IMG/VR virus record: IMGVR_UViG_3300023218_000040
Coordinates: 140,015 to 204,014 of that record
Length of the DNA stretch: 64,000 nt
Direction: 5' to 3' (one strand)
DNA from: a virus
Taxonomy: Duplodnaviria; Caudoviricetes
Shown: in pieces, positions 4,122 to 60,908 of the stretch
Layout of the letters: each line of letters starts with the position of its first letter
Position numbering within the stretch: the first letter of the stretch is position 1
Notes under the pieces: generated by a model
What the model was told of the DNA's origin: nothing
Database searches by the model: none
What the model saw: the letters and a program-made list of their open reading frames with translations, nothing else
Position numbers and translations under genes: made by a program

Positions 4122-5606
4122 ATGAGGAAATCTAATATGTCTGTGATATCTCGGTTGCCTATTATAACAGCATGCACAGGAATCTTTTTGCTCATGCTAT
4201 CTGCTTTACTTTTCATACATGAAAAGTATTCTACTCCTACTATTCCCATTATTCCTTCTTCTGTAAACCTGGAAACAGATATTGCTTCTGCTCTGGATGA
4301 AGTCATACAACATCTGGAGAAAGAATTCGTTAACGAGACTCCCCTGAAACGAGAAGAGATGCATCAAATTGCAGTAGATGCAATTTTGAAAAAGATAGGA
4401 GACCAACACGGTAAATTTCTTACTAACGATGAATATGGTCGGTTAAAGGATCGGATGACACCGACACATTATGGTGGATTAAACATCCGAGTTGCAAAGC
4501 ACCTAAGTGGTAATGATAAAGCTGAGATATTGATCCTTGAAATATTTGATGGTTCTCCGGTAGGTACATTCGGAGTGCGCCCTGGAGATACTATTAGTCA
4601 TGTAAATGGGATTATGGTAACACCGGACAATTGGGAGGATATGGTCAAGAGTGTTCGTGGCCCAATTGGTTCAGATGTCCGTATCACTGTGAAACGTGAT
4701 AGTAGGGTGAAATTGGGAGAACTAACTTTTCAGCGAGTTCGTTCGAAGCTACAAACCATATTTGCTCATCATGAAAATTGCTACATGCATTTGCGTATTA
4801 GTTTGTTTATTAATAGCCCAGAACAACAGGTATTTGATGCGGTTGAACCCATTCTAAAGGAATGTGATGGTGGTGTTCGTGGTATCGTTCTTGATGTCAG
4901 AAATAATCCTGGTGGATCGTTGCTCGGAGCCATCAAGTTAGTTGACATGTTTCTTGATCCGGATGATGTGGTTGTTAAGACCATAGGTCGTGCAGCAGAG
5001 AACAATATGACCTATAAAGCCGAACATGAAGCTGTGTTCCCAAAATCAATTCCAATGGTTGCTTTGATAAATGGACGTTCAGCATCAGCATCTGAAATTC
5101 TTGTTGGTGCGTTGAAGAAGTATAGAACGCTTTTTGCTGTGCTAGGCGAGAAATCATATGGAAAGGGATCTGTGCAAACTGTGTTTCCAGTGAATGGTGG
5201 CACGTCGGCGGTGAAGATAACGACCGCCATATATCTGGCCGGTGGTACCATCGAAATCGATGGAGTAGGCATCAAGCCAAACGTAGAAGTGAAACAGACA
5301 ATCACTCCTGGTCAAACGGATATGCAGCGTGTAGTAAACACTACCTTGATTTTGAATTCCATGAACCCGGCAGTGGATCACCAACTGCGCATGGGATACC
5401 ATTTTGTTGCTCATCTGGCAAATAACAAAGCAGTAGTTTCCATATCACCTGACCGTGGTGTTCTTCAGGCGTTGGAGTCCGTCGAGGCTCAAAAGCCTGT
5501 GGTAGTTACCGGATCGTTGTGCAGGGAAGCTGGCTTGAGGGGATGCCCCCGACCAAGAGAGGTCTTGCAGGTTCCCTCCTTCGGGACACCAGGAAACCCT
5601 CCCTGA
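4122..5606 (+). CDS. S41 family C-terminal processing protease (CtpA/Prc/Tsp-like) with N-terminal TM helix and PDZ domain
   Basis: PDZ (GGLNIRV..PGD.I), LDVRNNPGG, SASASE catalytic Ser, GKGSVQ catalytic Lys, GIKPN. Confidence 0.9.
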   Translation: MRKSNMSVISRLPIITACTGIFLLMLSALLFIHEKYSTPTIPIIPSSVNLETDIASALDEVIQHLEKEFVNETPLKREEMHQIAVDAILKKIGDQHGKFLTNDEYGRLKDRMTPTHYGGLNIRVAKHLSGNDKAEILILEIFDGSPVGTFGVRPGDTISHVNGIMVTPDNWEDMVKSVRGPIGSDVRITVKRDSRVKLGELTFQRVRSKLQTIFAHHENCYMHLRISLFINSPEQQVFDAVEPILKECDGGVRGIVLDVRNNPGGSLLGAIKLVDMFLDPDDVVVKTIGRAAENNMTYKAEHEAVFPKSIPMVALINGRSASASEILVGALKKYRTLFAVLGEKSYGKGSVQTVFPVNGGTSAVKITTAIYLAGGTIEIDGVGIKPNVEVKQTITPGQTDMQRVVNTTLILNSMNPAVDHQLRMGYHFVAHLANNKAVVSISPDRGVLQALESVEAQKPVVVTGSLCREAGLRGCPRPREVLQVPSFGTPGNPP

Positions 5607-5740
5607 GTGCGTAATGCAATGTCCTGCGTCGATAGAAACGGAAGCTATGGTTACATGTTTATGCGTGATGGACACTCTTGACTAAAAATGTCTGCGGGTT
5701 TATACTACCCTTCCGACATAGCTTCCGTCTGGAGAATTCA

Positions 5741-7006
5741 GTGCGTTACTACAAGTTCCCGGAGATCGAAACCATCGATGATGTGCTTCCGGCCATTAAG
5801 GACCGGGATGAATTTGTCGTGGCCGAGCGAGATTGGGGAACGGTGATCGACTACCAGATCACCCTGCCGGATTCGTTCCCGTGTCCGGTTCGGGAGGCGC
5901 ATACCGCCAAGCAGCAATACAATTACATGGTGCGCCGTGAGTGCCGTGGCCTGAAGTTCGGCCTGAACGGCAAGCTGATCGCTCGTCCGTATCATAAGTT
6001 TTTCAATCTGGGCGAGCGTCCGGAGACCACCGACGACGAGCTTTCGTCTTTGGGTGCGTTCCATAAGAACTTCGTGATCATGCCGAAGCTGGATGGTTCA
6101 ATGATCCATCCGATCACTTGGAATGACACCATGTACTTTTGCACCCGTATGGGTATCACCGATGTTGCGAATCAGGCATACGAGTTCGCTGGAAACAACG
6201 GGATGTACGAGCGCTTTTCCTATGATATGTGCCAGCGTGGACTGACCCCAATCTTCGAGTGGTGCTCTCGCAAGCAACGCATCGTGCTGGACTATCCGCA
6301 GGACTCGTTAATCTTGACTGCCATTCGTGTGAATCGCACGGGTGAGTACCTGACCCGTGGCAAGATGCAGGCTTTGGCTGTTCCGTACGGGGTTCCGATG
6401 GTGGATCTGTACGACGGCTCATGGGACGGCATTGAGAAGTTTAGCAAACACGTTCGTGACATCGAAAACGCCGAGGGCTACGTCATTCGCTGGGATGACG
6501 GCAACATGATCAAGATGAAGGGTGAGTGGTACGTGGCGATCCATCGTGCCAAGGATTCCATCATGCACGAGAAGCGCATCATAGCTTTGATCTTGAACGA
6601 CAGTCTGGATGATGTGATGCCGCACCTGTTGCCGCAGGACTACGACCGTCTGGACCGGTACCGCAATGACTTCTGGCGTACCGTGGACCATGTGGAGAAA
6701 ACCCTGGACACCAAGGTTTCGATCTGTCGTTCGTTCACTGATGCCACTGGCATGGAAGAGAACGAGGCGAAGGGTTGGTTCGCACGTCAGGACGTGTCGC
6801 AGTACAAGGGGGTTCTGGCTCCGTGGAAGGGTCTTTTGTTCGCTACGTGGGACAAGAAGGATAAGACTCGGAACCTGTTCATCGATTACCTGCGCAAGCG
6901 GTTCTCGTTGGATGTAGATAACTCTAAGGCCAATGGCTCGCAGGCTGTAGTGGATGAGCTTCGTGACGCTTTCATGCTTCCGGAAAAGAAGTGGGAGGAT
7001 TACTGA
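5741..7006 (+). CDS. T4 Rnl1-like RNA ligase
   Basis: RPYHKFFNLGE, motif I KLDGS, FEW, EGYVI, KMKGEWY; GTG start after GGAGA. Confidence 0.85.
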   Translation: MRYYKFPEIETIDDVLPAIKDRDEFVVAERDWGTVIDYQITLPDSFPCPVREAHTAKQQYNYMVRRECRGLKFGLNGKLIARPYHKFFNLGERPETTDDELSSLGAFHKNFVIMPKLDGSMIHPITWNDTMYFCTRMGITDVANQAYEFAGNNGMYERFSYDMCQRGLTPIFEWCSRKQRIVLDYPQDSLILTAIRVNRTGEYLTRGKMQALAVPYGVPMVDLYDGSWDGIEKFSKHVRDIENAEGYVIRWDDGNMIKMKGEWYVAIHRAKDSIMHEKRIIALILNDSLDDVMPHLLPQDYDRLDRYRNDFWRTVDHVEKTLDTKVSICRSFTDATGMEENEAKGWFARQDVSQYKGVLAPWKGLLFATWDKKDKTRNLFIDYLRKRFSLDVDNSKANGSQAVVDELRDAFMLPEKKWEDY

Positions 7007-7007
7007 A

Positions 7008-9396: not shown

Positions 9397-9440
9397 TGGT
9401 TAAATCCTCGAACGTGATGAACTTAAGTATTTATCAATCC

Positions 9441-9471
9441 TTGACTTATTCACTTATATGGGATATAAATA
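9441..9471 (+). promoter_or_regulatory. Overlapping sigma70 and T4-like late promoter for tmRNA
   Basis: TTGACT(9441)-17 bp-TATAAATA(9464). Confidence 0.8.
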
Positions 9472-9476
9472 AAAGT

Positions 9477-9836
9477 ACAGTTGCTTGAGCGAACACTTGA
9501 AGCTCTACGGACGGCGGTTCGATTCCGCCCATCTCCACTAAACGATGGACATAGAGTAGCAGTGAGTGTACACCGGTACTCTATTTTCATTAGCGGCAGA
9601 TAACGCACAACTGCCACATCTCTGGGGATGCCCTGGTTTTGACGTGGTGATGGATGGCTAGTAGTGAGACTGTCGGGTTAGACTACCCCCGTAAAGGTTC
9701 ACCCAAAGTATCTGCAAACGATGCTGTATATGACGAGGAGGTTCTTCCTCTCGCTGCATAAGCGGGAGCCAAGAATTCCTACTGCGGCTTAACAACCCGC
9801 AACGTCCGGGGTCTAACGAGCCTTGTTACCAAAATC
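9477..9836 (+). ncRNA. ssrA: Circularly permuted two-piece tmRNA; tag (A)ANDAVYDEEVLPLAA* at 9714-9761
   Basis: T-arm GGCGG-TTCGATT-CCGCC and acceptor 3' strand CATCTCC-A (9530-9537) precede the 5' strand GGGGATG (9624); G3.U70 Ala identity; CTGGTTTTGAC; tag reading frame ending AA-stop. Confidence 0.93.
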
Positions 9837-9840
9837 CTAG

Positions 9841-9867
9841 AAAGGGGAGCCTGTGTGCTCCCCTTTT
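9841..9867 (+). terminator. Intrinsic terminator after tmRNA
   Basis: GGGGAGC/GCTCCCC stem followed by TTTT. Confidence 0.8.
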
Positions 9868-9972
9868 GCTTTCCGTAATATTACTCGTCAATCATTTCAC
9901 CAAGAAACTTTTATGCATAGTGAGTTTCAGGGATATATACTTTATGAAAAAATTAACGAGGAGACTCTAATA

Positions 9973-10293
9973 ATGGATACAAATAGCAAGATGAGCTATG
10001 CGACTGGTCGAAAGCTCAGAATTATTGAAGAAAACATTGGAGAGGATTGGCGAAATCTTCATCCGGGGAAGTCTATTGATGCTGTGTATAATATGATTAC
10101 CGGAGACAGTCGTAAGAACTTGTTCTGCAAGATCGACCCGGATATAAAGTGCAAGCTGGATGAGATGGTGGATTTCCATGATACAAAGATGGCCGAGCTT
10201 GTTGAAAAGCTGATCGAAGAGGAATATGATAGGTTTGTTATGATGCGCAATGCCAAAGTGAACGAGATGGCATCGCAGTTTGCCATTGGTTAA
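9973..10293 (+). CDS. Hypothetical protein, possible ribbon-helix-helix DNA-binding C-terminus
   Basis: RBS GAGGAG; KIDPDIKCKLDEMV...KMAELVEKLI pattern. Confidence 0.55.
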   Translation: MDTNSKMSYATGRKLRIIEENIGEDWRNLHPGKSIDAVYNMITGDSRKNLFCKIDPDIKCKLDEMVDFHDTKMAELVEKLIEEEYDRFVMMRNAKVNEMASQFAIG

Positions 10294-10987: not shown

Positions 10988-13150
10988 ATGCACATCAAAG
11001 AAGATATCAAGTTGGACTACTCGGACGTTCTTATTTGTCCCAAAAGGTCAACTCTTGGTAGTCGTTCTGCCGTAGAACTAATCCGAACCTACAAATTCCG
11101 TCACGGCAAGAAATATTGGAGTGGCGTGCCTATTATGGCAGCCAACATGGATGGCGTCGGTACTTTCTCCATGGCCAAGGTGCTTCAGAAGCATGGCATG
11201 ATGACAGTCATTCGAAAGCACTACACGTTGAACGATTGGCAGAAGAATGCTAATGATTTGGATTGGAACTACATTGTGGCATGCACGGGCAGCAATGCGA
11301 TCTTTGATAACGATGCAACCGACTATAAACTCCTTCATCAAGTATGCGAGCGTTGGCCAGTACGGCATATATGCATCGATGTTGCGAACGGTTACCAGGA
11401 GAACTTTGTCGAATTCGTTGAGCAAGTTCGCAACGACTTCCCTGAACATACTCTGATTGCTGGAAATGTCTGCACGCCCGAAATCACCGAGCAGTTGATC
11501 CTGAGCGGTGCCGACATTGTGAAGGTGGGTATTGGTCCAGGATGTCTTGCTGCTGGCAGTAGAATCCTCATGTCGAATGGGTTGTACAAAAACATTGAGG
11601 ATGTACAAGCGGGTGATCGGGTAATAGTACAAAGTGGTAATGCCGCTACAGTTAACCGGCAATTCTCTACCGGATATCGACAGGTCACTTCAGTGACAAA
11701 TGGTTCTTTTCATCGACCTTTGATTCTGACGCCAGATCATCGATGTTTCTTAGGAGACCTATCATCCACTTCGAAATCTACTGTTCAGTCTCGTGGCTAT
11801 CGAAAGATCTTAGAAAAGCCCACCAGAACCGGAGAATCCAAACTGCGATGGATGCCCATCGAAGATGCGGAACATACTGTAGCATTGATGCCTAAAACAA
11901 TCGAATTCGAATTGCCTGATTCTTTCGATGTAGACATTTCTGAACACTTTACTCGAAACCATGAGTATAAAACTTGTGTCGAGTCTAATTATGACTTCGG
12001 ATATGTACTTGGTTTCTTTCTTGGTGACGGAAATGCCAATGTTCGCACAAATCATACTGTGGATGGTGATTCCACATCCGGACAACTGCGTTGGTATCTG
12101 AATGCCAACGACACGGTGATGATTCAGAAGCTAGTGCAAGCAATCGGCAATGTAACCGGAAAGGAACCAGTATTGGAAACGAGTGGTTCGGTTACACATG
12201 TCGTTCTGTATTCCAAACAGTGGACTGAATTCTTTGCCACATTTGGGAAGCAAGAGAAAAAGCACATCCGAGAAGAATTCATGTGTCTGAACAAAGAATA
12301 CAATACCGGTCTTCTGGATGGATTGGTTGATTCTGATGGATTCACCAGTAATGATGGTCGCATCGGATTTACTAACACATCAGAATCATTGATTGAGTTG
12401 TTCGATGTGGTTTGCTATCTGGTGCATGGTAGCTTCCCGACATCTTCGTCTAAAGGAATCTGTCATTCTGCCCTTATACCGAATACTACGAAAGAAGCCT
12501 TCGTTAGTCGATTGAATGTTTCCCATGAGGCCCGACTGTTAGATGATTACGGTGTTGTAAAAATTCTAAACCGTACCGAACATAACATTGAGGTTGAGGT
12601 TTTTGATTTGGAAATCGATGACCCATCACATAGTTTCATTGCTAACAATATGATTGTTCATAATTCGGTCTGTACGACTCGCATCGTGACTGGCGTTGGC
12701 TATCCGCAGCTATCTGCGGTAATCGAGTGCGCTGACATTGCTCACCAACACAAAGGCATGGTCATCGCTGATGGTGGATGCACTGTTCCTGGTGACGTTG
12801 CCAAGGCTTTTGGTGGCGGTGCTGATTTCGTGATGCTTGGTGGTATGCTCGCTTTCCATGACGAGTCTGAAGAAGTTGATGAGTCTGATGGTACGGTGAA
12901 GTTCTACGGAATGAGCAGCAACGATGCAATGGGTCGTCATGGTGCTCGAAAGGATGGATATCGTACAGCCGAAGGTAAGGCTGTAGAGATGGAGTCCCGT
13001 GGTCCTGTGAACAACACTGTCGAGGAAATCTTGGGCGGTCTCAAGTCTACCTGCACGTATGTTGGTGCGGAGTCACTGAAGGAGCTAAGTAAGCGTACCA
13101 CATTCGTACGAGTCAACCGAACTCACAACAGAGTATTTGGAGACGGGTAA
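10988..13150 (+). CDS. guaC: GMP reductase interrupted by an intein
   Basis: LDYSDVLICPKRSTLGSRS, PIMAANMDGVGT, DVANGY, KVGIGPG|SVCTTR, ADGGC, AEGK; the exteins total 346 aa. Confidence 0.93.
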   Translation: MHIKEDIKLDYSDVLICPKRSTLGSRSAVELIRTYKFRHGKKYWSGVPIMAANMDGVGTFSMAKVLQKHGMMTVIRKHYTLNDWQKNANDLDWNYIVACTGSNAIFDNDATDYKLLHQVCERWPVRHICIDVANGYQENFVEFVEQVRNDFPEHTLIAGNVCTPEITEQLILSGADIVKVGIGPGCLAAGSRILMSNGLYKNIEDVQAGDRVIVQSGNAATVNRQFSTGYRQVTSVTNGSFHRPLILTPDHRCFLGDLSSTSKSTVQSRGYRKILEKPTRTGESKLRWMPIEDAEHTVALMPKTIEFELPDSFDVDISEHFTRNHEYKTCVESNYDFGYVLGFFLGDGNANVRTNHTVDGDSTSGQLRWYLNANDTVMIQKLVQAIGNVTGKEPVLETSGSVTHVVLYSKQWTEFFATFGKQEKKHIREEFMCLNKEYNTGLLDGLVDSDGFTSNDGRIGFTNTSESLIELFDVVCYLVHGSFPTSSSKGICHSALIPNTTKEAFVSRLNVSHEARLLDDYGVVKILNRTEHNIEVEVFDLEIDDPSHSFIANNMIVHNSVCTTRIVTGVGYPQLSAVIECADIAHQHKGMVIADGGCTVPGDVAKAFGGGADFVMLGGMLAFHDESEEVDESDGTVKFYGMSSNDAMGRHGARKDGYRTAEGKAVEMESRGPVNNTVEEILGGLKSTCTYVGAESLKELSKRTTFVRVNRTHNRVFGDG
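11543..12664 (+). mobile_element. Intein (374 aa) with LAGLIDADG homing endonuclease
   Basis: Starts CLAAGSRI, ends FIANNMIVHN before Ser+1; GFFLGDG and GLVDSDG blocks. Confidence 0.92.
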
Positions 13151-15820: not shown

Positions 15821-15834
15821 CGAGAGATCATCTC

Positions 15835-36458: not shown

Positions 36459-37058
36459 ATGAATGACCGATTATTAAGTGAAGTCTTTTTCTCCGTGGAT
36501 GGAGAATTCGATGGACCATTTCCACCGAACCATTCCATGTTGTCAATTGGCTCTGTAGCGTTCACGTTGTCTGATGGCGTCATCGGTGAGTTCAGCGTAA
36601 ATATCAAACCACTTTCTGGAGCTACCATGGACCCCGTAGTCAAGCGGGAGTTCTGGGATAAGCATCCGGAAGCTTTGGCATCCACACTGGTCGATCAGCA
36701 GTCCCCAAAAGTTGCAATGCAGCAATTCAGGAATTTCTATAACCAGTATGCCAAGCCACGGGAGGGAGTTTTTCTGGAGTATCCTGGAGCAATCGATTAC
36801 TTCTGGTGTCATTGGTATTTTCTGAACTTCCTGGGTGAAGATCCCTTCGGACACTCGGGGCAGTTTGGAGTGAAAACATACGCCTCAGCAGCGCTCAAAC
36901 GCCCCCTACGCCATTCCACCAAGCGGAACATGCCCAAGCGTTGGTTTGCCTCGAAGTTGCCTCACACACACGTAGCGCTTGATGACGCAAGACAACAGGC
37001 CCATTTGGCCATTCGAATGATGTGTGATAATCTGGATATCGAGCTACCCCCTCTCTAA
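36459..37058 (+). CDS. DEDDh 3'-5' exonuclease
   Basis: SVDGEFDGP..SMLSIG...D..F...H.ALDDA. Confidence 0.8.
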   Translation: MNDRLLSEVFFSVDGEFDGPFPPNHSMLSIGSVAFTLSDGVIGEFSVNIKPLSGATMDPVVKREFWDKHPEALASTLVDQQSPKVAMQQFRNFYNQYAKPREGVFLEYPGAIDYFWCHWYFLNFLGEDPFGHSGQFGVKTYASAALKRPLRHSTKRNMPKRWFASKLPHTHVALDDARQQAHLAIRMMCDNLDIELPPL

Positions 37059-38851: not shown

Positions 38852-38936
38852 TGGTGCCCCTGGAGGGAGTCGAACCCCCATGCCTTTCGGCGGCGGCTTT
38901 TGAGACCGCTGTGTCTGCCAATTCCACCACAAGGGC
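38852..38936 (-). tRNA. tRNA-Leu(CAA)
   Basis: Cloverleaf with long variable arm, GCGGT-CTCAAAA-GCCGC, encoded CCA. Confidence 0.93.
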
Positions 38937-39058
38937 ATTCAATTAGATTGTCCTACACAATCGTCCTTTACAACCTCGGACCTTTTCAGGTATCCATACC
39001 ATCTATCGGCTAAAGCTACGCTACCCATCGGATCTCTCCTATGGACGTAGCAATCGAT

Positions 39059-39144
39059 TGGTGCGGATGAAAGGACTCGAACCTTCACGGGGTTTCCCCC
39101 ACTAGCCCCTCAAGCTAGCGTGTCTACCATTTCACCACATCCGC
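39059..39144 (-). tRNA. tRNA-Leu(GAG)
   Basis: CTAGC-TTGAGGG-GCTAG, long variable arm, CCA. Confidence 0.93.
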
Positions 39145-42642: not shown

Positions 42643-42866
42643 ACGTGACAACGACCGCTGAGGAGACATTCACCCTTGAGGACAGCCAGGACATGGCGCT
42701 TATGGTCTACCGTCGATTCGGCTACGATCTGTGCGCCGCCACGGCTGCCTGGAGGCGCATGCTTCAGAACAATGCCACTCGTGGGGATTATCTGGATCTC
42801 CTAATCGGTGCTGCGGCTCGTCAACCGGCAAATCGTGACATCGCTTCTATTCTCAGAAAGGATTAA
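42639..42866 (+). CDS. Hypothetical protein
   Basis: ATGA overlap, RBS AAGGAG. Confidence 0.55.
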   Translation: MNVTTTAEETFTLEDSQDMALMVYRRFGYDLCAATAAWRRMLQNNATRGDYLDLLIGAAARQPANRDIASILRKD

Positions 42867-43954: not shown

Positions 43955-44001
43955 GGGCCTTTTTCTTGTTATTTGCCGTGGCTCTATGGCCACACAGGTA
44001 T

Positions 44002-44742
44002 TTAGTCTAAGAAGTTGCTGGAGAACTCCACTGCGTTTTCACTCTGGGCCTTGGTGTATTTGGTAAGTCCGGTCCAGTCGCCATCAAAGATCTCATCAGC
44101 CAATCCCCAATCCACTGTTTCCTTGGCAGTCAGAAATACATCGTCTTTTCGGCGCATCTGTTCCATGAGCATGTCAGCAATCCATTCTGATTTTTTCTTG
44201 GAGAACTTTCCACCTTGCTTCATGCGACGGACATAGATTTCCAACATCAGGCGGTTAGTATCTTTGTAGAACTCCATCCCGGACATGACAGTACGCATGT
44301 TTCCTTCATCCCCATAGGTTCCCTCATGAAACATGAAGTGCGAATTGGGCATCATGACTCTCTTAGTCACAGCCTGGAAAATGATGGAAGACATCGACCG
44401 GGCGTGAGAATAGTTCAGGATCGTGGTATCATGAGGATAGGAGATGAGCATATCGAACATGGCCATGCCTTCGATCCAATCTCCACCGTTGGTCTTCATG
44501 TGGATCACGACTGGACTTTGAGAGGTCTTCATACACAGATGCATATTCAAAACAAAGCGATTGGCCATCGTGAAATTGACACCGGGTTCAGCATCTCCAT
44601 AAGCATCAGTTCCGGCCAGATTGTGATCACCGAACAGATAGATGTGGTTGTTTTGAATATCCAGATGATATTCTTGCATGCGATAAACCGGATCTTCCGC
44701 CTTATTCAATTTCACCTTATCGGTATTGTCAAATTTAGCCAT
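44002..44742 (-). CDS. clpP: ClpP-like protease
   Basis: TNGGD, ARSMSS (Ser), FMFHEG (His), DVFLTAKE..WGLADEI. Confidence 0.8.
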   Translation of the reverse strand: MAKFDNTDKVKLNKAEDPVYRMQEYHLDIQNNHIYLFGDHNLAGTDAYGDAEPGVNFTMANRFVLNMHLCMKTSQSPVVIHMKTNGGDWIEGMAMFDMLISYPHDTTILNYSHARSMSSIIFQAVTKRVMMPNSHFMFHEGTYGDEGNMRTVMSGMEFYKDTNRLMLEIYVRRMKQGGKFSKKKSEWIADMLMEQMRRKDDVFLTAKETVDWGLADEIFDGDWTGLTKYTKAQSENAVEFSSNFLD

Positions 44743-45098: not shown

Positions 45099-45177
45099 GC
45101 TCCGTTGGACTAGTCTGGTTTAGGTCGTCACCCTCTCAAGGTGAAGGTCGTGGGTTCGAATCCCACACGGAGTGCCA
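45099..45177 (+). tRNA. tRNA-Glu(CTC)
   Basis: TCACC-CTCTCAA-GGTGA, cloverleaf, CCA. Confidence 0.9.
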
Positions 45178-45179
45178 AT

Positions 45180-45256
45180 GCACCGTTCGTCTAGTGGCCT
45201 AGGATGCCTGCCTTTCAAGCAGGAAGACGCCGGTTCGAATCCGGCACGGTGTACCA
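45180..45256 (+). tRNA. tRNA-Glu(TTC)
   Basis: CCTGC-CTTTCAA-GCAGG, cloverleaf, CCA. Confidence 0.93.
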
Positions 45257-45451: not shown

Positions 45452-46663
45452 ATGGCCACATTTTCAGTTCCAGTCGTCCGTATCGACGCCATCGAGGACC
45501 ATCCCAATGCCGACGCCTTGGAGATCGCCAAGGTGCGTGACTTCGATTGCATCACCCGCATCGGTGAGTACAAGGCTGGTGATATCGCTGTGTACATCCC
45601 CGAGGCTGCGGTCATGCCCGAGTGGCTGCTGAAGCGCATGGGTCTGTGGGATGAGGAGAAAGGCAAAGGCAAGCTGGCAGGCAAAGAAGGCAATCGTGTC
45701 AAGGCTGTCAAGCTGCGTGGCGTCGTGAGTCAGGGTCTGTTGTACCCGGTGTCTTGGGATGACCCAGATCTGTCTCAGGGAGAGACTGTCGGTCTGCCTC
45801 GTGTCGATCTGAGCGACGGCGAAAGCTACCTGCTGTATGACTGGAACGACGTGGACATCGAGACCATCAAGTCTCGTTGCATCGACGTGGACGTGGGAGA
45901 CGTGCTTGGCATCACCAAGTGGGAGCCTCCCATTCCGACGCACATGGCTGGTGAGGTCTGCAACATCTTCGGCCACACTCTGAAGTTCGACATCGAGAAC
46001 ATCCAGAAGCACAACGAGGTTCTGGTTTCGGGCGAGGAGGTCGTGATCACCGAGAAGCTTCACGGCACCTGGACGTGCTTTGGCTTCGATCCGGACCTGG
46101 ATCACGAGGAACTTCTTCACGGTGGCACCATCATCAACTCTAAGGGTCTGAGCGAGCAGGGTTTGGCATTCAAGTGGAACGACGCCAATGACAAGAACCT
46201 GTACGTTCGGATGTTCAAGCAGTACATGCTGGATACTGGTAGATGGAACAAGGTGATGGACATGGCCGTTCGTCGTGGCGAGCCCGTGTTCATCCTGGGT
46301 GAGACCTTCGGTCCTGGTGTACAAGATCTGCACTACGGTCTGAAGGAGAAGAGTTTTCTGGTGTTCGGCATCTACGTCGGCAAGCCGGGTCAGGGTCAAT
46401 ACCTCGATCACGTGGAGTTCAAGCAGACGTGCTCCTGGCTAGAGGTTTCCACGGTACCGGTCCTGTACCATGGTCCGTTCAGCATGGATACTGCCAAGAG
46501 CTTTCGTGACGGAAAGGATACCATCACCGGAGCCAACATTCGGGAGGGTATCGTGATTACTCCGGTTAAAGAACGAAACGATTTCGTGCTGGGTCGGGTG
46601 ACTCTCAAGATGATCAGCCCGGACTACCTGCTGCGGAAGGGCAATGCCACGGAATTCAACTGA
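45452..46663 (+). CDS. RNA ligase, DRB0094/Rnl2-like family with N-terminal OB-like domain
   Basis: HPNADALE, VYIPEAAV, VKAVKLRGVVSQGL, TEKLHGT, GETFG, REGIV, LK.ISPDYL. Confidence 0.88.
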   Translation: MATFSVPVVRIDAIEDHPNADALEIAKVRDFDCITRIGEYKAGDIAVYIPEAAVMPEWLLKRMGLWDEEKGKGKLAGKEGNRVKAVKLRGVVSQGLLYPVSWDDPDLSQGETVGLPRVDLSDGESYLLYDWNDVDIETIKSRCIDVDVGDVLGITKWEPPIPTHMAGEVCNIFGHTLKFDIENIQKHNEVLVSGEEVVITEKLHGTWTCFGFDPDLDHEELLHGGTIINSKGLSEQGLAFKWNDANDKNLYVRMFKQYMLDTGRWNKVMDMAVRRGEPVFILGETFGPGVQDLHYGLKEKSFLVFGIYVGKPGQGQYLDHVEFKQTCSWLEVSTVPVLYHGPFSMDTAKSFRDGKDTITGANIREGIVITPVKERNDFVLGRVTLKMISPDYLLRKGNATEFN

Positions 46664-50953: not shown

Positions 50954-51028
50954 GGCCGGGTGGCAGAGTCTGGTTATGCGGTGGCCTGCAAAGCCATGTC
51001 AACGTCGGTTCAAATCCGACTCCGGCCT
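50954..51028 (+). tRNA. tRNA-Cys(GCA), CCA not encoded
   Basis: GTGGC-CTGCAAA-GCCAT, U73. Confidence 0.9.
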
Positions 51029-51032
51029 CAAA

Positions 51033-51194
51033 ATGGAATTAGTACTAGTCCTCGCCTTTTTCATATTTGTCGTTGTTCTAACGACTCTGTCCAATCGTCC
51101 TCGAAGAACAGAATCCAATCCCATTTATCACAAGAAGTTCTGGCGTGAAGTTAGGGAGGATGACGATTACTACCCTGGACCTATACCAATGTAA
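51033..51194 (+). CDS. Small membrane protein
   Basis: N-terminal TM helix. Confidence 0.45.
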   Translation: MELVLVLAFFIFVVVLTTLSNRPRRTESNPIYHKKFWREVREDDDYYPGPIPM

Positions 51195-51210
51195 GACCTA
51201 CATTGGTTGA

Positions 51211-51438
51211 ATGAAATCCTCATTCGAAATTACCTCCGAAGGAACCTTGCACGAGATCTTGTGTAATGGTAGAGTATCCTATCGATTCCGTGGCGATGAC
51301 GACGCTTACATGTTTATCATCACGAATAATGAGCCATCGGTCGATGGTACAGTCGTTGCTAAGTACAGAAAAGCCAAGATCCAGGTTATCATCGACTATG
51401 ACGATCAACATGCAGACTACGAAGGAATCGAAACATGA
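51211..51438 (+). CDS. Hypothetical protein
   Basis: Co-oriented ORF. Confidence 0.5.
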   Translation: MKSSFEITSEGTLHEILCNGRVSYRFRGDDDAYMFIITNNEPSVDGTVVAKYRKAKIQVIIDYDDQHADYEGIET

Positions 51439-51529
51439 ACATTCATCCTAGATTGGTAGCAGAACTCGCCCTACTAGTCGTGTGCATTCTTCTATGGGCA
51501 GGGGTTACCACACTGTAAGTAGTCTATAA

Positions 51530-51620
51530 GGAAAGGCTACCGGATTGGCGACCGGCGCTGCCTCGAAAGCAGTTTGAGCCAGCAATGGCTTTGTGGGTTC
51601 GAATCCCACCCCTTCCGCCA
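51530..51620 (+). tRNA. tRNA-Ser(CGA)
   Basis: GCTGC-CTCGAAA-GCAGT, long variable arm, G73, CCA; A5.C68 mismatch. Confidence 0.85.
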
Positions 51621-53930: not shown

Positions 53931-54062
53931 ATGACTAGTATTGCACAAATCAAGGACGTGATTTTCATGAAGATCCTACCGCCAATTATTGCGTTGATCG
54001 TAATGATTGGTATGTTGGCTGGCATAATGTTTCTAAGCATCTTGCCTTACATGCCGAAGTAA
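53931..54062 (+). CDS. 43-aa single-TM protein (not in ORF track)
   Basis: RBS GAGG; hydrophobic core. Confidence 0.5.
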   Translation: MTSIAQIKDVIFMKILPPIIALIVMIGMLAGIMFLSILPYMPK

Positions 54063-54076
54063 GCTATATTAAGTAT

Positions 54077-54444
54077 GTGCAGGTATTCAAGCTATCGCTC
54101 GGCCCATTTTATTGGGAGAGAGGAAGTTCGGGACACCATAGTGCAGACCAGTGGGGAAATCCCACCCGGCGTAATGCTGAGGACAAGTGCCATAGAGACA
54201 GACAGCCGATGGCTCACCCTTCGGGTAGGTTGAGCACAGGCAATAGGTGGAACGGTGGTGTAAGAGACCACACGTAGCATGGCGACATGTTGCGGAAGCA
54301 AACTCTGGTCGGTGCAACTCCAGACAGCTCTGATGACTCGGCACGACGAGGGGCGGGTAGGGGGCGAAGAGGGGTGCTGAAAAGCATACCCCAAGATGAA
54401 TGATAGCTCTTGACAGAATCCCGGCTATAGATATCGTAAAGCAC
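54077..54444 (+). ncRNA. rnpB: RNase P RNA, bacterial type A
   Basis: P2 AGCTATC/GATAGCT, GAGGAAGTTCGGG, AGTGCCATAGAGA, CGATGGC, GGTAAGAG-like, AGATGAATGA, ACAGAATCCCGGCTATA. Confidence 0.92.
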
Positions 54445-54470: not shown

Positions 54471-54665
54471 ATGAAACTTCTAAGCGACAAGGAACTCAAC
54501 ATCATCCGTGGCAAGGCATCAGTGGGTCATGCCACTACCGATGAAATCATGAGTGTTTTTGGACACCTGGATGCTTTGGAAATGAAACTGGACGAATACG
54601 AGATGGAGGATATCTTCGGCACTGAAGGATGGCGTCATTCATTCGGGCATCCGGATTCGGACTGA
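54471..54665 (+). CDS. Hypothetical protein
   Basis: LSD.EL..IRGK...FG.EGWR. Confidence 0.6.
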   Translation: MKLLSDKELNIIRGKASVGHATTDEIMSVFGHLDALEMKLDEYEMEDIFGTEGWRHSFGHPDSD

Positions 54666-55195
54666 TGGATTGCATGGTAGACATCGAAACGCTCGATACT
54701 GAGCCCACTTCAGCGGTGCTTAGTATCGGTGCGGTGTTATTCAATATTGATAGAGAGGGAACGATTGACGCTCCCTTCCATCAGAACATTACATTCGAGT
54801 CTGCCTTGACCTATGGCACCTTCTCAGAGTCCACAGTATCGTGGTGGGAGAAGCAAGGGGATGATGCTAAAGCATCGTTGTTTGATCCAGAGCCAGTAGA
54901 ATTGAAGGCTGCTCTTGACGACTTCTATAAGTGGTGCAAGCAGATGAAGGCAAAGAGGGTGTGGGCAAACAGTCCATCATTTGATGTCATCATACTGAGA
55001 AACGCCTGTAAGGAAGTTGGCTCCAAATGGCCTTTTTCTCCATGGGTTGAAATGGATGTGAGAACAATCAAGAATTTGATGCCGGAAGCTAAGAAGAAAA
55101 CATTTAAGGGTACAGTTCACCATCCAGTTGACGATGCGGTAAATCAAGTTGAAATCGTTCAAGCGTTCCATCGTTGGGTTTATAGTGACCGCTAG
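54665..55195 (+). CDS. DEDDh 3'-5' exoribonuclease (Rv2179c/DUF5051-like)
   Basis: MVDIETL...VLSIGAV, WANSPSFD, DVRT, H.PVDDA..Q. Confidence 0.85.
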   Translation: MDCMVDIETLDTEPTSAVLSIGAVLFNIDREGTIDAPFHQNITFESALTYGTFSESTVSWWEKQGDDAKASLFDPEPVELKAALDDFYKWCKQMKAKRVWANSPSFDVIILRNACKEVGSKWPFSPWVEMDVRTIKNLMPEAKKKTFKGTVHHPVDDAVNQVEIVQAFHRWVYSDR

Positions 55196-56206: not shown

Positions 56207-56280
56207 GCCCTTGTAGCTCAACTGGACAGAGCACTCGGCTCCTACCCGAAAGGTTACAGGTTCGACTCCTGTCAAGGGCG
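56207..56280 (+). tRNA. tRNA-Arg(CCT), CCA not encoded
   Basis: GCTC-AACTGGACA-GAGC, TCGG-CTCCTAC-CCGA. Confidence 0.88.
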
Positions 56281-56286
56281 CAAAAT

Positions 56287-56362
56287 GCTGCCGTAGCTCA
56301 GTTGGCAGAGTACTTCATTGGTAATGAAGAGGTCGTGAGTTCGAATCTCACCGGTAGCACCA
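56287..56362 (+). tRNA. tRNA-Thr(GGT)
   Basis: CTTCA-TTGGTAA-TGAAG, CCA. Confidence 0.93.
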
Positions 56363-56442
56363 AATTTGTTACATTGTCTTGACTCATGTTTTATCCCCTA
56401 TAAATATAGGGGAAATCGTTCCCAATAATGGAGGAAAAAATC

Positions 56443-56574
56443 ATGGGTTTTGACAAAAAGTGGATTCTATACGGCGCACTAGCCGTTGTTGTGCTTCTAG
56501 CCGTACTAGGTTTTTCTGGATTCCTACCGGGACCAGATAGCCTTGGTGGCGAGGCACCAGGATCGCTCAACTAA
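56443..56574 (+). CDS. 43-aa single-TM protein (not in ORF track)
   Basis: RBS GGAGG; TATAAATA upstream. Confidence 0.55.
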   Translation: MGFDKKWILYGALAVVVLLAVLGFSGFLPGPDSLGGEAPGSLN

Positions 56575-56604
56575 GCGAGTCGGGGGCATCAGTTGCCCCC
56601 AAAT

Positions 56605-56678
56605 GCGGGATTGGTATAGAGGTTGTGCCTCAGCCTTCCAAGCTGAAGAGGCGGGTTCGAGTCCCGCATCCCGCTCCA
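56605..56678 (+). tRNA. tRNA-Gly(TCC)
   Basis: TCAGC-CTTCCAA-GCTGA, U73, CCA. Confidence 0.92.
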
Positions 56679-57144: not shown

Positions 57145-57735
57145 ATGTTATCAACTCGTGGTAATGACGCCATTCTCTCAAAATGGGTTATCGTTAACAC
57201 ACTTTGGACTTCGCTGGTGGCAGCGGCTTGGCACCAAGGGTGGATTTCGTATATTTTCGAGAAGGACATCACCTATATCTCCCATGGTATTGCAGTTAGT
57301 TTTCTTCTTGTTCTAGCTGTAAGCGCTTACCGAGCAGTTCAGCTTCGTAATTTCTTCAGGATTTCGGATAGTATCCGAGAAGCATATCTCAAAGCGTCAA
57401 ACCGAGAAGGTTCCGACCGTTCAGAATCTCGTGATGCTCTCAAGACCGAACTCATAAGCAACGCATCTTTCATCGACTTCTTCGCAACCGCTGCTTTGGC
57501 AGTAGGTGTCATGGGCACGGTTGTAGGACTGATTTTCGGATTTTCGCATGTCAATCCGGAAGACATCTCCAACGCAGCGAATGCTGGTGCGGTAGTGGGT
57601 GGTCTCCTGAAAGGACTATCCGTAGCATTCCATACTACTCTGGTTGGTGGCGTAGTGAACTTGTGGCTTCGAACCAATCATTACATTTTAATGCAAGGCA
57701 ACGCATACTTGTACTCCAAGGTACTCGGAGGATAA
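57145..57735 (+). CDS. MotA/TolQ/ExbB-like membrane protein
   Basis: Four TM segments; GVMGTVVGL and AFHTTLVG. Confidence 0.75.
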   Translation: MLSTRGNDAILSKWVIVNTLWTSLVAAAWHQGWISYIFEKDITYISHGIAVSFLLVLAVSAYRAVQLRNFFRISDSIREAYLKASNREGSDRSESRDALKTELISNASFIDFFATAALAVGVMGTVVGLIFGFSHVNPEDISNAANAGAVVGGLLKGLSVAFHTTLVGGVVNLWLRTNHYILMQGNAYLYSKVLGG

Positions 57736-57739
57736 CATC

Positions 57740-58381
57740 ATGCTGGACAATTCCTGGTTCAGCGGATCTTTTGGTGACGAACGCACCACCAATACCCTAT
57801 TTCGAGATTTGATTTTGGGCGCTTTGGGTGGTGTCATGGTGGCATTGCTCATTCTGATCTTCCACATCAACCCACCAAAAGAGAACGACGCTGAGAAAGA
57901 GCGGTCTCGTGGTAATATTCGAGTTGAGATCATTTGGCCACAAGACCTAAACGTAGACATTGATCTATGGTCCAAAGCTCCTGGTGATACTCCAGTAGGA
58001 TATTCAAACCTCACGGGTGTAGTGTTCAACCTAGTTCGTGATGACCTGGGTAATTACGCCGACCTATCTGAAATGAACTACGAGGTTTCATTCTCCCGTG
58101 GCATTCCGCCGGGAGAATACATTATCAATCTCCATTGGTTTAGTAACGCTCATGGCGCAACATCGGTGCCTGTGAAGGTTTTGATCACTATGAGGAAGGA
58201 TGACACCGAATCATCTACATCTTCTTCGATCAAGGTGTTAAGTAAGATCGTTACACTAAATCATGTAACCGAAGAAGTTACAGCAATACGGTTCAAGATT
58301 GATGATAACAGAAATCTTGTGAAGGATAGTTTCTCAACCGTATTCAAGTCTATCAGAACTGGTGATAAATATGGAAATTGA
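57740..58381 (+). CDS. MotB/ExbD-like single-TM partner with beta-sandwich periplasmic domain
   Basis: TM with Asp (LFRDLIL), then VEIIWP..VDIDLW...DDLG..NYE...GEYIINLH. Confidence 0.6.
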   Translation: MLDNSWFSGSFGDERTTNTLFRDLILGALGGVMVALLILIFHINPPKENDAEKERSRGNIRVEIIWPQDLNVDIDLWSKAPGDTPVGYSNLTGVVFNLVRDDLGNYADLSEMNYEVSFSRGIPPGEYIINLHWFSNAHGATSVPVKVLITMRKDDTESSTSSSIKVLSKIVTLNHVTEEVTAIRFKIDDNRNLVKDSFSTVFKSIRTGDKYGN

Positions 58382-58925
58382 AACATTAACGTTATTCAGC
58401 GAACGAACCGATATGACGCTATACACACTGTTTGCATCATTAGGCATTGCAGTGTTCTTGGTGTCGATACTTGGAATATTCGATAAGTTTCCACTCCGAC
58501 GTTCAATCATTTCGGTTTTCTTCATGGTGGCACTAGGTGTCGGGTATGTCGCCATGGGAGAACTATTAAGTAGACCAAAACCGGTGGACATTCTAACCTG
58601 GGAGCGTCCCGACGTTGAGGACGCTACAATCTTGGCACAATTTCTACAAGAAGGTAAAGCTATCTATCTTCTGTTGATGTATGAAGGCATCATTGTACCG
58701 AGGTACTATCAGTTTCCTTGGAATCAAGAGATGGCTGAGAAGTTGCAACGTGGTCAACGTGCTACTGCGCTGGGTGATATACAGGGTATGATGTTGAAAT
58801 TCCCGTTTCAAAATTCTTTGGAAGGACGAGAGCATCCAGAAGTATATGAGCTTCCATGGCCCAAACCTCCTGAAAAGAGAGATCCTAACGAGCGAGAAGT
58901 TATAGATTTGGATAAGATGGTTTAA
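58371..58925 (+). CDS. Two-TM membrane protein, third gene of the triad
   Basis: Two TM helices, LLSRPKP, IYL....PRYY..PW. Confidence 0.6.
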   Translation: MEIETLTLFSERTDMTLYTLFASLGIAVFLVSILGIFDKFPLRRSIISVFFMVALGVGYVAMGELLSRPKPVDILTWERPDVEDATILAQFLQEGKAIYLLLMYEGIIVPRYYQFPWNQEMAEKLQRGQRATALGDIQGMMLKFPFQNSLEGREHPEVYELPWPKPPEKRDPNEREVIDLDKMV

Positions 58926-59254: not shown

Positions 59255-59412
59255 TACACAACGTATTTACAAAATTAAGCCCCGAAGGGATGAACCCAGC
59301 GGGGCTTATGGCGAAATCCGCCGAATCTTGTCAGGAGACAAGAACAATGACCATGACCAATGTAAATACTAGGAGCTTGTAAATCAAGCGTTGTGTGATT
59401 ACTATTGCTGAC

Positions 59413-60102
59413 ATGAGCACCATAGAAGTCCTGAAAAACGTCTATGTAGACGACAGCGTTACACAACTCTTCGATAATCCAATAAAATGGATTGAAGGAA
59501 GAGAGAATTTCATCGTCCGTACGGTTGGTGGAATTCATAATCTTAGTCACCATGACAAAGAAGCCTGGGCCAAGAACGAAGGAAATCCAATCCGAATGGT
59601 CGAATTAGAAACCGGTCGTGAAGAAATTTGGTTTCCTTCTATTATGTCGGGTGCGCCATCCTACATTTCTCTGAACGTTGATGGTGAGATTCAGTCTCAC
59701 GTGAAATACAGTCGCATCATGCCTGCTGTATCTTTGGACAATTTCAACATGTCGGTGAAGATGTGGTACGAAAACGGTGTCATCTCTCGTGACGACCAGA
59801 ACCCCTCTTTGGAAGCCAATCGACTCATGCTTAGTATACAAGACGAAGATTTGAAAGATTTCGTCACTGCTATCATCTTCAAGAAATTCTCCGAGACTTG
59901 GGAAGATGGAAAATGGAAGAGAACCGAAACCTACGACATGGAATTCGTGTTTTCTGATTCTGCTTTGAACAGACCGAAGATAAAGGAAAAAGCCACCAAG
60001 TGGATCTCTGATCACTGCAAAGGGGGCTTTTTCCCATTATCGAAGAATTTGTTTCGAGAGAAGGATGAAGAATTTATGTTCATCTCTGACTTTTCTTCTT
60101 GA
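59413..60102 (+). CDS. Hypothetical protein
   Basis: Long ORF. Confidence 0.55.
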   Translation: MSTIEVLKNVYVDDSVTQLFDNPIKWIEGRENFIVRTVGGIHNLSHHDKEAWAKNEGNPIRMVELETGREEIWFPSIMSGAPSYISLNVDGEIQSHVKYSRIMPAVSLDNFNMSVKMWYENGVISRDDQNPSLEANRLMLSIQDEDLKDFVTAIIFKKFSETWEDGKWKRTETYDMEFVFSDSALNRPKIKEKATKWISDHCKGGFFPLSKNLFREKDEEFMFISDFSS

Positions 60103-60156
60103 CAATTGTAATCCATCCTTATACATTGCTTCTGTAATTCAACGAGGGAGTTCCCC

Positions 60157-60489
60157 GTGCGTAAAGACATCATCGATTGGTTCGCAAACGGCGAGACCGG
60201 TCTATCATCTTCGGCTATGGCTGCCGCAGTGGCAGGTATCACCCCTAAGCGTCCGTTGTTTCCGCTGGATCCCGCTGACCTTCGCCGTTGTGTTTGGTTT
60301 TTGGAGGCTGTACCCCAGGCTCGTCGGCATCTCAACAAGGTGCGAAAACTCGGTCCCGTGTGGAACGACCTCATCGACAACTGGCAGGAACTGGAGACAC
60401 TTCTGCGTGAGGAGATGGCAACGGGCAACAAAGCTCCTCGCACGTACGAGCGCATGAAGGAAATCATCGGAGACCGGCCATGGATTTGA
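60157..60489 (+). CDS. Conserved phage hypothetical protein
   Basis: W..NGETGLSS..M...P.DPAD..RC..L..VP; early promoter upstream. Confidence 0.7.
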   Translation: MRKDIIDWFANGETGLSSSAMAAAVAGITPKRPLFPLDPADLRRCVWFLEAVPQARRHLNKVRKLGPVWNDLIDNWQELETLLREEMATGNKAPRTYERMKEIIGDRPWI

Positions 60490-60908
60490 TGAAAGAGCCA
60501 AACCCGTATCTGTACATCCTGATGCGGTCGGACCTGGACAGCATGAACCCTGGCAAGAAGGTTGCTCAGGGCGCACATGCTGCCAACCAGTTCGTGTTCG
60601 AGTTCATGCGGGATACCGAAAAACCAAACTATCCCAATCGCATGATCATGATGTTTGAGCAGTGGCAGACTTCCACTCCACAAGGTTTCGGTGTGACCAT
60701 CACCCTGGACATCGACGGCAACAAGCTTCCGCTGGTGTACAAGGCTGCCAAGAAGATGGGCTTCCCGGCTGGTGTGACACATGATCCGAGCTACCCCATC
60801 ACCGATGGTCTGGTCACTCACCTGATTCCGCTGGATACCTGTGGTTACGTTTTCGGTGACAAGGACGATCTGAAGATCCTTCTAGGCCAGTTGAACCTGC
60901 TCCCGTAA
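60480..60908 (+). CDS. Peptidyl-tRNA hydrolase type 2-like protein
   Basis: YILMRSDL.SMNPGK..AQ.AHA, V.DPSY, TCGYVFG. Confidence 0.7.
   Translation: MDLMKEPNPYLYILMRSDLDSMNPGKKVAQGAHAANQFVFEFMRDTEKPNYPNRMIMMFEQWQTSTPQGFGVTITLDIDGNKLPLVYKAAKKMGFPAGVTHDPSYPITDGLVTHLIPLDTCGYVFGDKDDLKILLGQLNLLP

Follow-up and report, generated by a model that had tools for sequence, protein, structure and literature searches.

The subject of this study is a 64,000-nt stretch of viral DNA (Duplodnaviria; Caudoviricetes), hereafter the window, which corresponds to bases 140015–204014 of the 204,014-bp linear IMG/VR record IMGVR_UViG_3300023218_000040 (G000) and carries genes for a two-piece transfer-messenger RNA (tmRNA), a full-length RNase P RNA, a series of transfer RNAs (tRNAs), RNA-repair enzymes, a Pth2-fold protein and two proteases (Table 1). 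A first-pass annotation of the sequence had read these genes as one translation-rescue and protein-disposal toolkit. All the parts that it listed (tmRNA, RNase P RNA, 12 tRNAs, ligases, Pth2-like gene and proteases) were found where it had put them or nearby, and the RNA-centred half of its interpretation, which recurs in other phages, stands, but the full rescue loop with dedicated disposal does not. Instead we think it rather probable that the window holds two unrelated kinds of cargo, a set for the supply, maturation and repair of stable RNAs and two separately acquired proteases; the RNA-side genes recur together and the proteases do not. As tmRNAs, tRNAs and RNA-repair enzymes are already known from big phages, the new element is the gene for a full-length RNase P ribozyme. 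We propose tentatively, as a reading that we would put just short of an even chance, that large phages with tRNA arrays carry this ribozyme as a working part of a viral maturation line for stable RNAs, which here also produces the two-piece tmRNA.

To judge by the proteins it encodes the source is a T4-like jumbo phage of about 360–375 kb when whole, because the contig carries a T4-type major capsid protein gp23 (PF07068, 283 bits) and, adjoining it outside the window, a T4-type prohead protease gp21 (PF03420, 88 bits). The completeness of the record was estimated by CheckV as 55%, and a size of about 370 kb fits both that of a relative, G001 (375,937 bp, 93% complete, with a capsid protein 84% identical to that of G000), and a 360,469-bp contig recorded with identical copies of the window's Pth2-like, S41 and ClpP-like proteins. 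Homologues in G001 were found for 22 of the 95 open reading frames (ORFs) in the window as against 76 of the 129 ORFs elsewhere on the contig, and because so few of its ORFs have a counterpart there the window is best read as a hypervariable, fast-turnover accessory arm of the genome. A megablast search with a 10-kb piece of the window gave no match. For comparison two sets of viral records were used, many of them fragments. Set A (G001–G016) consists of 16 other records reached via one of three proteins (capsid, ClpP-like or Pth2-like) or via a pattern for the P4 region of RNase P RNA, and is biased by this manner of collection. Set B (G017–G024) consists of eight records of 91–160 kb that were among the listed matches to a tmRNA 3'-end pattern and were drawn independently of every other part of the supposed toolkit. 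Seven of these 24 other records are at least 90% complete.

The RNase P RNA proper (54082–54439, + strand) scores 168.3 bits against RF00010 (100 required) and covers model positions 1–367 of 367; as the whole model is matched, both the catalytic and the specificity domain are present. A promoter-like sequence, TTGCCT-17-TATATT at 54042–54070, ends 12 nt upstream. The 5' strand of P4 reads GAGGAAGUUCGGGAC in place of the near-universal bacterial GAGGAAAGUCCGGGC and the 3' strand reads AUCCCGGCUAU (54122–54136 and 54411–54429), and on reading by eye the pairing seems to be kept by changes in both strands. Among the other viral records the variant 5' strand occurs only in G004, where the 3' P4 strand is identical as well and the RNase P RNA is otherwise diverged from the G000 copy, and the variant pattern was found in none of 185,579 species-representative cellular genomes. 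A variant that is present on both strands, is common to the diverged G004 and is found in no cellular genome argues against recent capture from a host, and for an RNase P RNA that is maintained within phages. A blastn search against 50,697 GenBank phage records gave no match, the two RNase P RNAs were too diverged in a MAFFT alignment for analysis of covariation and the minimum-free-energy fold was uninformative (z = -0.6). Phrase searches of the literature found no paper on a phage or viral RNase P RNA, and this is apparently an undescribed kind of viral gene. Like bacterial class A RNase P RNA (RF00010; E. coli M1 RNA) it matches the model over its full length with both domains, but it differs from that RNA in being viral, in lying in a tRNA array, in having no accompanying rnpA (a search of the contig with PF00825 found no RnpA, and use of the host protein is presumed) and in its P4 variant, which none of the cellular genomes searched has.

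RNase P RNA was detected in nine of the 16 Set A records (156–262 bits), the nine being those collected through the RNase P pattern. In all nine the gene is embedded in a dense array of tRNAs, 4–17 of which are within 1.5 kb, so that with G000 counted the position within an array holds for 10/10 records. Two of the positive records, G010 and G014, have terminal repeats and are complete, at 94 kb and 168 kb. A tmRNA was found in five of the ten RNase P-positive records, again counting G000; three of these tmRNAs are two-piece and two are one-piece. Between the tRNA-Ser gene and the RNase P RNA the window also has a gene for quinolinate synthase NadA (51707–52627, + strand, 283 bits), which was not found in G001.

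The tmRNA gene is circularly permuted. The Rfam tmRNA_permuted model RF04321 matches at 9477–9761 (+) with 95.4 bits (gathering score 47) over model positions 1–213, and RF01850, the betaproteobacterial two-piece model, spans 9427–9867 and takes in the promoter-like and terminator elements. In order the locus consists of a promoter-like TTGACT-17-TATAAA, the acceptor/T-arm piece, an 86-nt spacer, the coding piece and a terminator hairpin; it should be noted that a simple promoter/terminator scan missed these signals, which were read from the sequence and the RF01850 alignment. The T arm and CAUCUCC-A (about 9515–9543) precede GGGGAUG (9624), which is the permuted layout, and GGGGAUG pairs with CAUCUCC in an acceptor stem that includes the G3:U alanine identity pair. 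The tag frame (9716–9763) begins at 9716 with the resume codon GCA, which aligns with the consensus of the Rfam model, and encodes ANDAVYDEEVLPLAA followed by a UAA stop. This tag, which ends PLAA, is exactly the LAA-ending one that the first-pass annotation had written; ARAGORN reported a tag in the wrong frame, which was rejected on the strength of the Rfam alignment and the sequence itself. The 3' end reads A-CUA and CCA is not encoded, so that CCA must be added. Searching the same GenBank phage records with the tmRNA by blastn gave no match, and an alignment of four phage tmRNAs with MAFFT was too diverged for covariation.

Neither the window nor the rest of the 204-kb contig encodes SmpB. 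It was likewise found in none of the 24 other records, seven of them at least 90% complete, which makes 0/25 with G000, and 13 of the 25 phage records carry a tmRNA (one further record has the 3'-end pattern only). This is a negative result that matters, since with SmpB missing in 25/25 records the phage tmRNAs appear to plug into the rescue and proteolysis of the host instead of replacing them, and the lack of SmpB or RnpA in any phage tested implies dependence on the host. In G000 and G001 alike the tmRNA is directly followed by a gene for a 100-amino-acid protein (60% identity to G001:148656–148898) belonging to a small family of 31 representatives. It has no Pfam, PHROG or significant PDB match, and its AlphaFold2 (AF2) model consists of helices only, with a predicted local distance difference test score (pLDDT) of 94.9. 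We considered whether it might be a hidden SmpB and rejected this, given an all-helical model of pLDDT about 95 with no significant structural match; searches of PHROGs and of the Atlas gave no useful lead. By analogy with phage Melnitz, in which a transcription coactivator gene follows ssrA (PMC9004378), it may be a small regulator.

Before these two RNAs are given a function it has to be considered whether one or both are inactive relics derived from a host, or decoys that sequester the RnpA or SmpB of the host. The departure of P4 from a near-invariant bacterial consensus and the lack of an encoded RnpA or SmpB would fit such an origin, and a phage tmRNA consisting of the tRNA-like domain only, which may titrate SmpB, has been discussed (PMC4131195). 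Here, though, both RNAs match their Rfam models over the full length with scores comfortably above threshold, P4 is altered on both strands with both variants common to two diverged phage records, and a variant seen in no cellular genome speaks against a recent capture. The tmRNA moreover retains the G3:U acceptor stem and the T arm, its tag frame is open and ends canonically, and there are a promoter-like site before the RNase P RNA and promoter- and terminator-like elements at the tmRNA. We therefore regard relics or decoys as highly improbable.

ARAGORN found 12 tRNAs in the window, of which nine encode CCA and three do not. The order of the tRNA genes at the 3' end of the window is that at the start of a 110-kb tRNA region in G001, which suggests that the contig probably breaks off just where this region begins and that the whole genome probably has about 45 tRNAs. 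No gene for a PolyA_pol/CCA enzyme was found on the 204-kb contig, and such an enzyme is probably encoded beyond its end. No ORF in the window ends inside a downstream tRNA; the gaps are 23–35 nt. Two genes for Rv2179c-like 3'-5' exoribonucleases are present, neither of which was found in G001, and the one with the stronger match starts 190 nt 3' of the RNase P RNA and is a candidate trimmer of 3' trailers. Two further observations concern the tRNA regions. A block formed by a MotA/ExbB-family protein and the two following ORFs (57145–58925, +) is kept beside tRNA genes at G001:325412–327174, and a G001 tRNA at 301027–301103 (L096), labelled Pyl by ARAGORN, has the anticodon CTA and would read the amber stop codon.

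The repair enzymes consist of an end-healing protein and two ligases. The Pnkp-like protein matches positions 8–390 of 851 of the bacterial Pnkp model TIGR04075 (131 bits), and since the match stops at 390 the ligase domain is absent; its G001 homologue (51%) is encoded just 3' of the tmRNA, after the 100-amino-acid ORF. The Rnl1-type ligase scores 206 bits with phrog_562 and 125 bits with TIGR02308 (G001 homologue, 35%), and the DRB0094-type ligase also has PF09414 and PF21189 (G001 homologue, 41%). The window thus has the components of T4-type repair, namely a P-loop polynucleotide kinase, a 3'-phosphatase and an Rnl1-family ligase, with a phosphatase of the bacterial Pnkp type. In T4, Pnkp and Rnl1 repair tRNA cut by the anticodon nuclease PrrC, and this established precedent bears on the idea, put forward in the first-pass annotation, that the gene set counters abortive infection: tRNA repair is the one part of that idea for which there is such a precedent. 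G000 has in common with T4 a kinase/phosphatase and an Rnl1-family ligase in a T4-like phage, and differs in the calcineurin-type phosphatase, typical of bacterial Pnkp, in the extra DRB0094-type ligase and in the S41 gene that lies between Pnkp and Rnl1.

For the putative peptidyl-tRNA hydrolase, models of sequence and structure point to the fold, and the activity is a matter of candidacy. The protein scores 73.6 bits with phrog_1866, a PHROG annotated as 'unknown function', and 21.3 bits with the NCBIfam equivalog model PRK04322 (cut-off 126). An AF2 model made with 45 homologues has a pLDDT of 91.1. Foldseek gave 13 significant matches for this model, every one a Pth2 entry (1xty, 2zv3 and 1q7s among them), and the ten best chains listed have target template-modelling (TM) scores of 0.72–0.81. 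K26 and D102, the candidate catalytic residues, do not vary among the 45 homologues and in an alignment correspond to the GK and D of M. jannaschii Pth2 (2ZV3). The family is large (550 homologues; 43% for the one in G001). The modelling thus confirms the Pth2 fold, for which the sequence scores had been weak evidence, and leaves the protein a putative hydrolase. Compared with the archaeal and eukaryotic enzymes (S. solfataricus 1XTY, M. jannaschii 2ZV3 and human Bit1 1Q7S) it has the same fold and the same GK...D residues, but only about 20% identity, extra insertions and a phage family (phrog_1866) of its own.

How far these RNA-side genes belong together can be judged from G001. In this relative a two-piece tmRNA (96 bits, tag ANVANDNFAPMAMAA) is retained, with the 100-amino-acid gene and Pnkp after it. 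Both ligases and the Pth2-like gene are there as well, as are 47 tRNAs and, within the tRNA region, a PolyA_pol/CCA gene. For parts of the RNA half, then, the co-occurrence that had been suggested is seen. The opposite possibility is that nothing is coupled, each item being independent cargo in a region of fast turnover and the common theme reflecting only the general enrichment of translation genes in huge phages, which are known for carrying an assortment of them (PMC7162821). That so few ORFs of the window (22/95) are common to G001 is in keeping with this, as are the lack of RNase P RNA in G001 and in all eight tmRNA-bearing phages sampled, and the complete RNase P-positive genomes without a tmRNA (G010 and G014). 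Independent cargo would not easily account for the presence of the RNase P RNA in a tRNA array in 10/10 records, which is hard to explain without a role linked to tRNAs, or for the conservation of the tmRNA–Pnkp neighbourhood between G000 and G001 and of the repair enzymes and the Pth2-like gene across the lineage. We consider a complete lack of coupling unlikely, if by no means negligible.

Some of the same observations, with others, weigh against our preferred reading of the window. RNase P RNA was not found in G001, the closest relative, in spite of the 47 tRNAs and the tmRNA there, nor in any of the eight tmRNA-bearing large phages of the independent Set B; because of these absences the RNase P RNA is dispensable and not tightly coupled to tmRNA. 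The 5/10 overlap of tmRNA with RNase P RNA is biased, the records having been chosen for carrying RNase P. Since P4 departs from a near-universal consensus, the RNA is to be taken as a putative catalyst. Finally, the absences of SmpB, ClpX and RnpA refer to the 204-kb contig, about 55% of the genome, and to the relatives.

The two proteases behave differently from the RNA-side genes. The protein named ClpP in the first-pass annotation has PF00574 and an intact Ser-His-Asp triad when aligned to S. aureus ClpP, but scores 30.3 bits with the clpP model TIGR00493 as against a cut-off of 308.6, and 45 as against 249 with PRK00277, the best of the ClpP-type models; by these scores it is a ClpP-superfamily protease and not a ClpP orthologue. 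Among NCBIfam and PHROG families it matches ClpP-related head-maturation proteases best (NF045542, 62.9 bits with a cut-off of 120; phrog_94), and the family has 207 members, many of them on contigs of 100–366 kb. It differs from those head-maturation proteases in scoring below the cut-off, in lying away from the capsid genes (about 120 kb from gp23/gp21 and not beside portal or capsid genes) and in the possession by the phage of its own gp21. A role as head-maturation protease was rejected for both the ClpP-like and the S41 protein, a T4-type gp21 being encoded beside gp23 elsewhere on the contig, and it is for the same reason unlikely that the proteases act only in virion maturation. With canonical ClpP the protein has the fold family and the triad in common and differs in falling below the cut-off of TIGR00493 and in the lack of an encoded ClpX.

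In five phages the ClpP-like gene had no conserved neighbour. Immediately downstream of it in the window is a gene for a DUF6765 protein (42863–43993, - strand, 287 bits) of a bacterial family with no PHROG match, for which the Atlas gave a weak structural likeness to phospholipase C/D-domain proteins (TM 0.54–0.58). It was considered as a conserved partner and rejected, since in five other phages the two genes are not neighbours, and neither gene was found in G001. ClpX was not found on the 204-kb contig of G000 and, of five records of the comparison sets tested for it, was present in G005 only (G001 and G009 lack it). A ClpP-family gene occurs in 7/16 records of Set A and 2/8 of Set B, and canonical ClpP genes (about 250 bits) occur mostly in records without tmRNA (G005–G008). 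The clearest case is G005 (228 kb), which has a canonical ClpX (403 bits, G005:70705–71883) and ClpP (250 bits, G005:91509–92054) and a homologue of the window's Pth2-like gene, and in which, at about 65% completeness, no tmRNA or RNase P RNA was found.

The S41 protease has an N-terminal hydrophobic segment, a putative anchor, and its gene is flanked on the same strand by those for Pnkp, 94 nt away, and Rnl1, 72 nt away. It scores 209.1 bits with TIGR00225, just under the cut-off of 218.6, and far below the cut-offs of the models for the long Tsp/Prc proteins (PRK11186, 67.9 vs 825; Tsp CT441, 93.7 vs 700). Of the description 'S41/Tsp-like' the anchored S41 protease therefore holds, but on these scores the enzyme is of the short CtpA type and not of the long Tsp/Prc type, which in E. 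coli degrades ssrA-tagged periplasmic proteins. Among solved structures the best relative is CtpA of P. aeruginosa (7RPQ), with the Ser (SASASE) and Lys (GKGS) motifs kept. The protein has in common with this enzyme and with B. subtilis CtpB (4C2C) a PDZ and an S41 domain, a Ser/Lys dyad and a predicted exported location. CtpA is known, from the work on P. aeruginosa CtpA–LbcA, for cutting cell-wall hydrolases and not ssrA-tagged proteins. The nearest relatives anywhere are 36–38% identical. No S41 gene was found in the 24 other phage records, G001 included (1/25 with G000), a scan of viral contigs for close relatives found nothing and no PHROG family matched, so that S41 proteases in phages are almost unknown.

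These results bear directly on the integrated toolkit, according to which the tmRNA tags proteins, a phage ClpP in the cytoplasm and the S41 protease in the periplasm dispose of them, the Pth2-like enzyme recycles peptidyl-tRNA and RNase P matures the RNAs, the whole serving to defeat abortive infection. The parts look intact (triad, Ser/Lys dyad and LAA tag), the S41 gene is placed so that it may be co-transcribed with the RNA-repair genes, and G009 (463 kb) combines a canonical ClpP with a tmRNA and an RNase P RNA; further, the S41 homologue P0122 and the ClpP-like homologue P0252 each list a 52,773-bp contig from the same sources, which is possibly, not demonstrably, the same one (a metagenome scan for P0122 did not recover it). 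The components of disposal nevertheless do not travel with the tmRNA. G001 keeps the tmRNA without the ClpP-like gene or S41, ClpX and ClpP are together in G005 where no tmRNA was found, and the eight independent tmRNA-bearing large phages have a ClpP-family gene in two cases and S41 in none. SmpB and S41 were each found in 0/24 of the other records, no ClpX is present in G000, G001 or G009, the ClpP-like protein fails the equivalog model, is nearer to head-maturation proteases and has no conserved partner gene, and the closest solved relative of the S41 protein is an enzyme for cell-wall hydrolases. The absence of SmpB and ClpX from the window, already remarked on in the first-pass annotation, extends to the whole 204-kb contig, which in addition to these two lacks a CCA-adding enzyme, an RF-1/ArfB domain, a bacterial Pth and RnpA; a 'full ribosome-rescue loop' thus finds no support in it. 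We think it very unlikely that the integrated toolkit is correct.

From parts that are shown to be present and intact, to recur and to keep synteny we infer the biochemical steps of the following scheme, in which the stable-RNA set acts with host factors and the proteases stand apart. The phage would transcribe its own tRNAs and two-piece tmRNA. Its RNase P RNA, with RnpA borrowed from the host, would cut the 5' leaders and in so doing also release the 5' end of the tmRNA coding piece, and the adjacent 3'-5' exoribonuclease together with a CCA enzyme, probably encoded beyond the end of the contig, would finish the 3' ends. Pnkp and the two RNA ligases would restore, by end healing and sealing, tRNAs that anticodon nucleases of the host have cut, and the Pth2-fold hydrolase would recycle dropped peptidyl-tRNA. 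The tmRNA would be charged by host alanyl-tRNA synthetase and delivered by host SmpB and EF-Tu, and its PLAA-ending tag should be readable by host proteases of the ClpXP type. The proteases would be separate cargo, a ClpP-superfamily enzyme of a jumbo-phage family and a rare exported S41 enzyme of CtpA type, and nothing links either of them to the tag; characterized relatives of CtpA type act on cell-envelope proteins. If the proposal holds, the supply of phage tRNAs and rescue RNA would be independent of the host rnpB transcript, and if the ribozyme is active phages would own the first step of tRNA and tmRNA maturation, which would bear on how they survive host shut-off and RNA-targeting defences.

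Several elements of this scheme have counterparts in published phages. Huge phages with tmRNAs and SmpB were described by Al-Shayeb et al. (2020), where RNase P is unmentioned (PMC7162821). G000 has in common with the phages of more than 200 kb described there a large tRNA complement, a tmRNA and translation genes, but is without the SmpB reported there and has a full-length RNase P RNA. Phages bearing ssrA have been listed previously (PMC4131195), and of 18,146 phage genomes 402 had a tmRNA, in 53 cases a two-piece one (Buchholz et al., 2022; PMC9004378). With Melnitz and the pelagimyophages of the latter study, for which no phage SmpB was reported either, G000 has in common that a T4-like phage carries a permuted ssrA as a transcription unit of its own, followed directly by a small gene of regulatory appearance. 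It differs from Melnitz in that no glutamine riboswitch was detected (Rfam), the tag is longer, the tmRNA lies beside RNA-repair genes and there is an RNase P RNA in the genome.

Table 1. Features of the stable-RNA set and the two proteases, with positions in the window.
Feature	Position	Strand	Evidence
Pnkp-like polynucleotide kinase + calcineurin-type phosphoesterase (end-healing half)	2595..4028	+	PF13671 AAA_33 63.8 bits, PF00149
Membrane-anchored S41 C-terminal processing protease, CtpA type (by model scores)	4122..5606	+	PF03572 121 bits + PDZ
Rnl1-type RNA ligase (sealing half)	5678..7006	+	PF09511 103.5 bits
Two-piece (circularly permuted) tmRNA gene	9441..9872	+	RF04321, RF01850, sequence reading
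100-amino-acid all-helical protein directly downstream of tmRNA	9991..10293	+	G001 synteny, AF2
Rv2179c-like 3'-5' exoribonuclease, second, weaker	36459..37058	+	PF16473 34.1 bits
tRNA-Leu(CAA), tRNA-Leu(GAG)	38852..39144	-	ARAGORN + Rfam; both encode CCA
ClpP-superfamily serine protease	44002..44742	-	PF00574 63.7 bits
tRNA-Glu(CTC), tRNA-Glu(TTC)	45099..45256	+	ARAGORN + Rfam
DRB0094-type ATP-dependent RNA ligase, N-terminal OB fold	45452..46663	+	TIGR02306 212.6 bits vs cut-off 151
tRNA-Cys(GCA), tRNA-Ser(CGA)	50954..51620	+	ARAGORN + Rfam; start of + strand tRNA run holding RNase P RNA
Class A RNase P RNA, full-length, with promoter-like site	54042..54439	+	RF00010, promoter scan
Rv2179c-like 3'-5' exoribonuclease, stronger	54629..55195	+	PF16473 148.1 bits, phrog_255 147 bits
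tRNA-Arg(CCT), tRNA-Thr(GGT), tRNA-Gly(TCC)	56207..56678	+	ARAGORN + Rfam
Pth2-fold protein, candidate peptidyl-tRNA hydrolase	60480..60908	+	PF01981 30.7 bits vs cut-off 23
tRNA-Ala(TGC), tRNA-Ala(GGC), tRNA-Val(GAC)	61734..62668	+	ARAGORN + Rfam

A number of other genes in the window may be mentioned. At 1916–2554 (-) an N-terminal endonuclease VII domain is fused to a dCMP/cytidine deaminase domain, and at 10988–13150 (+) an IMP dehydrogenase/GMP reductase gene, not found in G001, is split by an intein (Hint and LAGLIDADG matches). The ORF at 31689–35246 (-) encodes 1185 amino acids without a Pfam match, and only a 141-residue stretch of it resembles anything in G001. A 584-amino-acid protein (28248–30002, +) joins an Acb1 anti-CBASS (cyclic oligonucleotide-based antiphage signalling system) domain (78 bits) to a PcfJ-like domain, with a G001 homologue for the Acb1 part only. 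Lastly, a MoxR-like AAA ATPase gene is followed by one for a DUF2201 metallopeptidase/VWA protein (14417–17310, +), and this pair is kept in G001 (40% and 34% identity).

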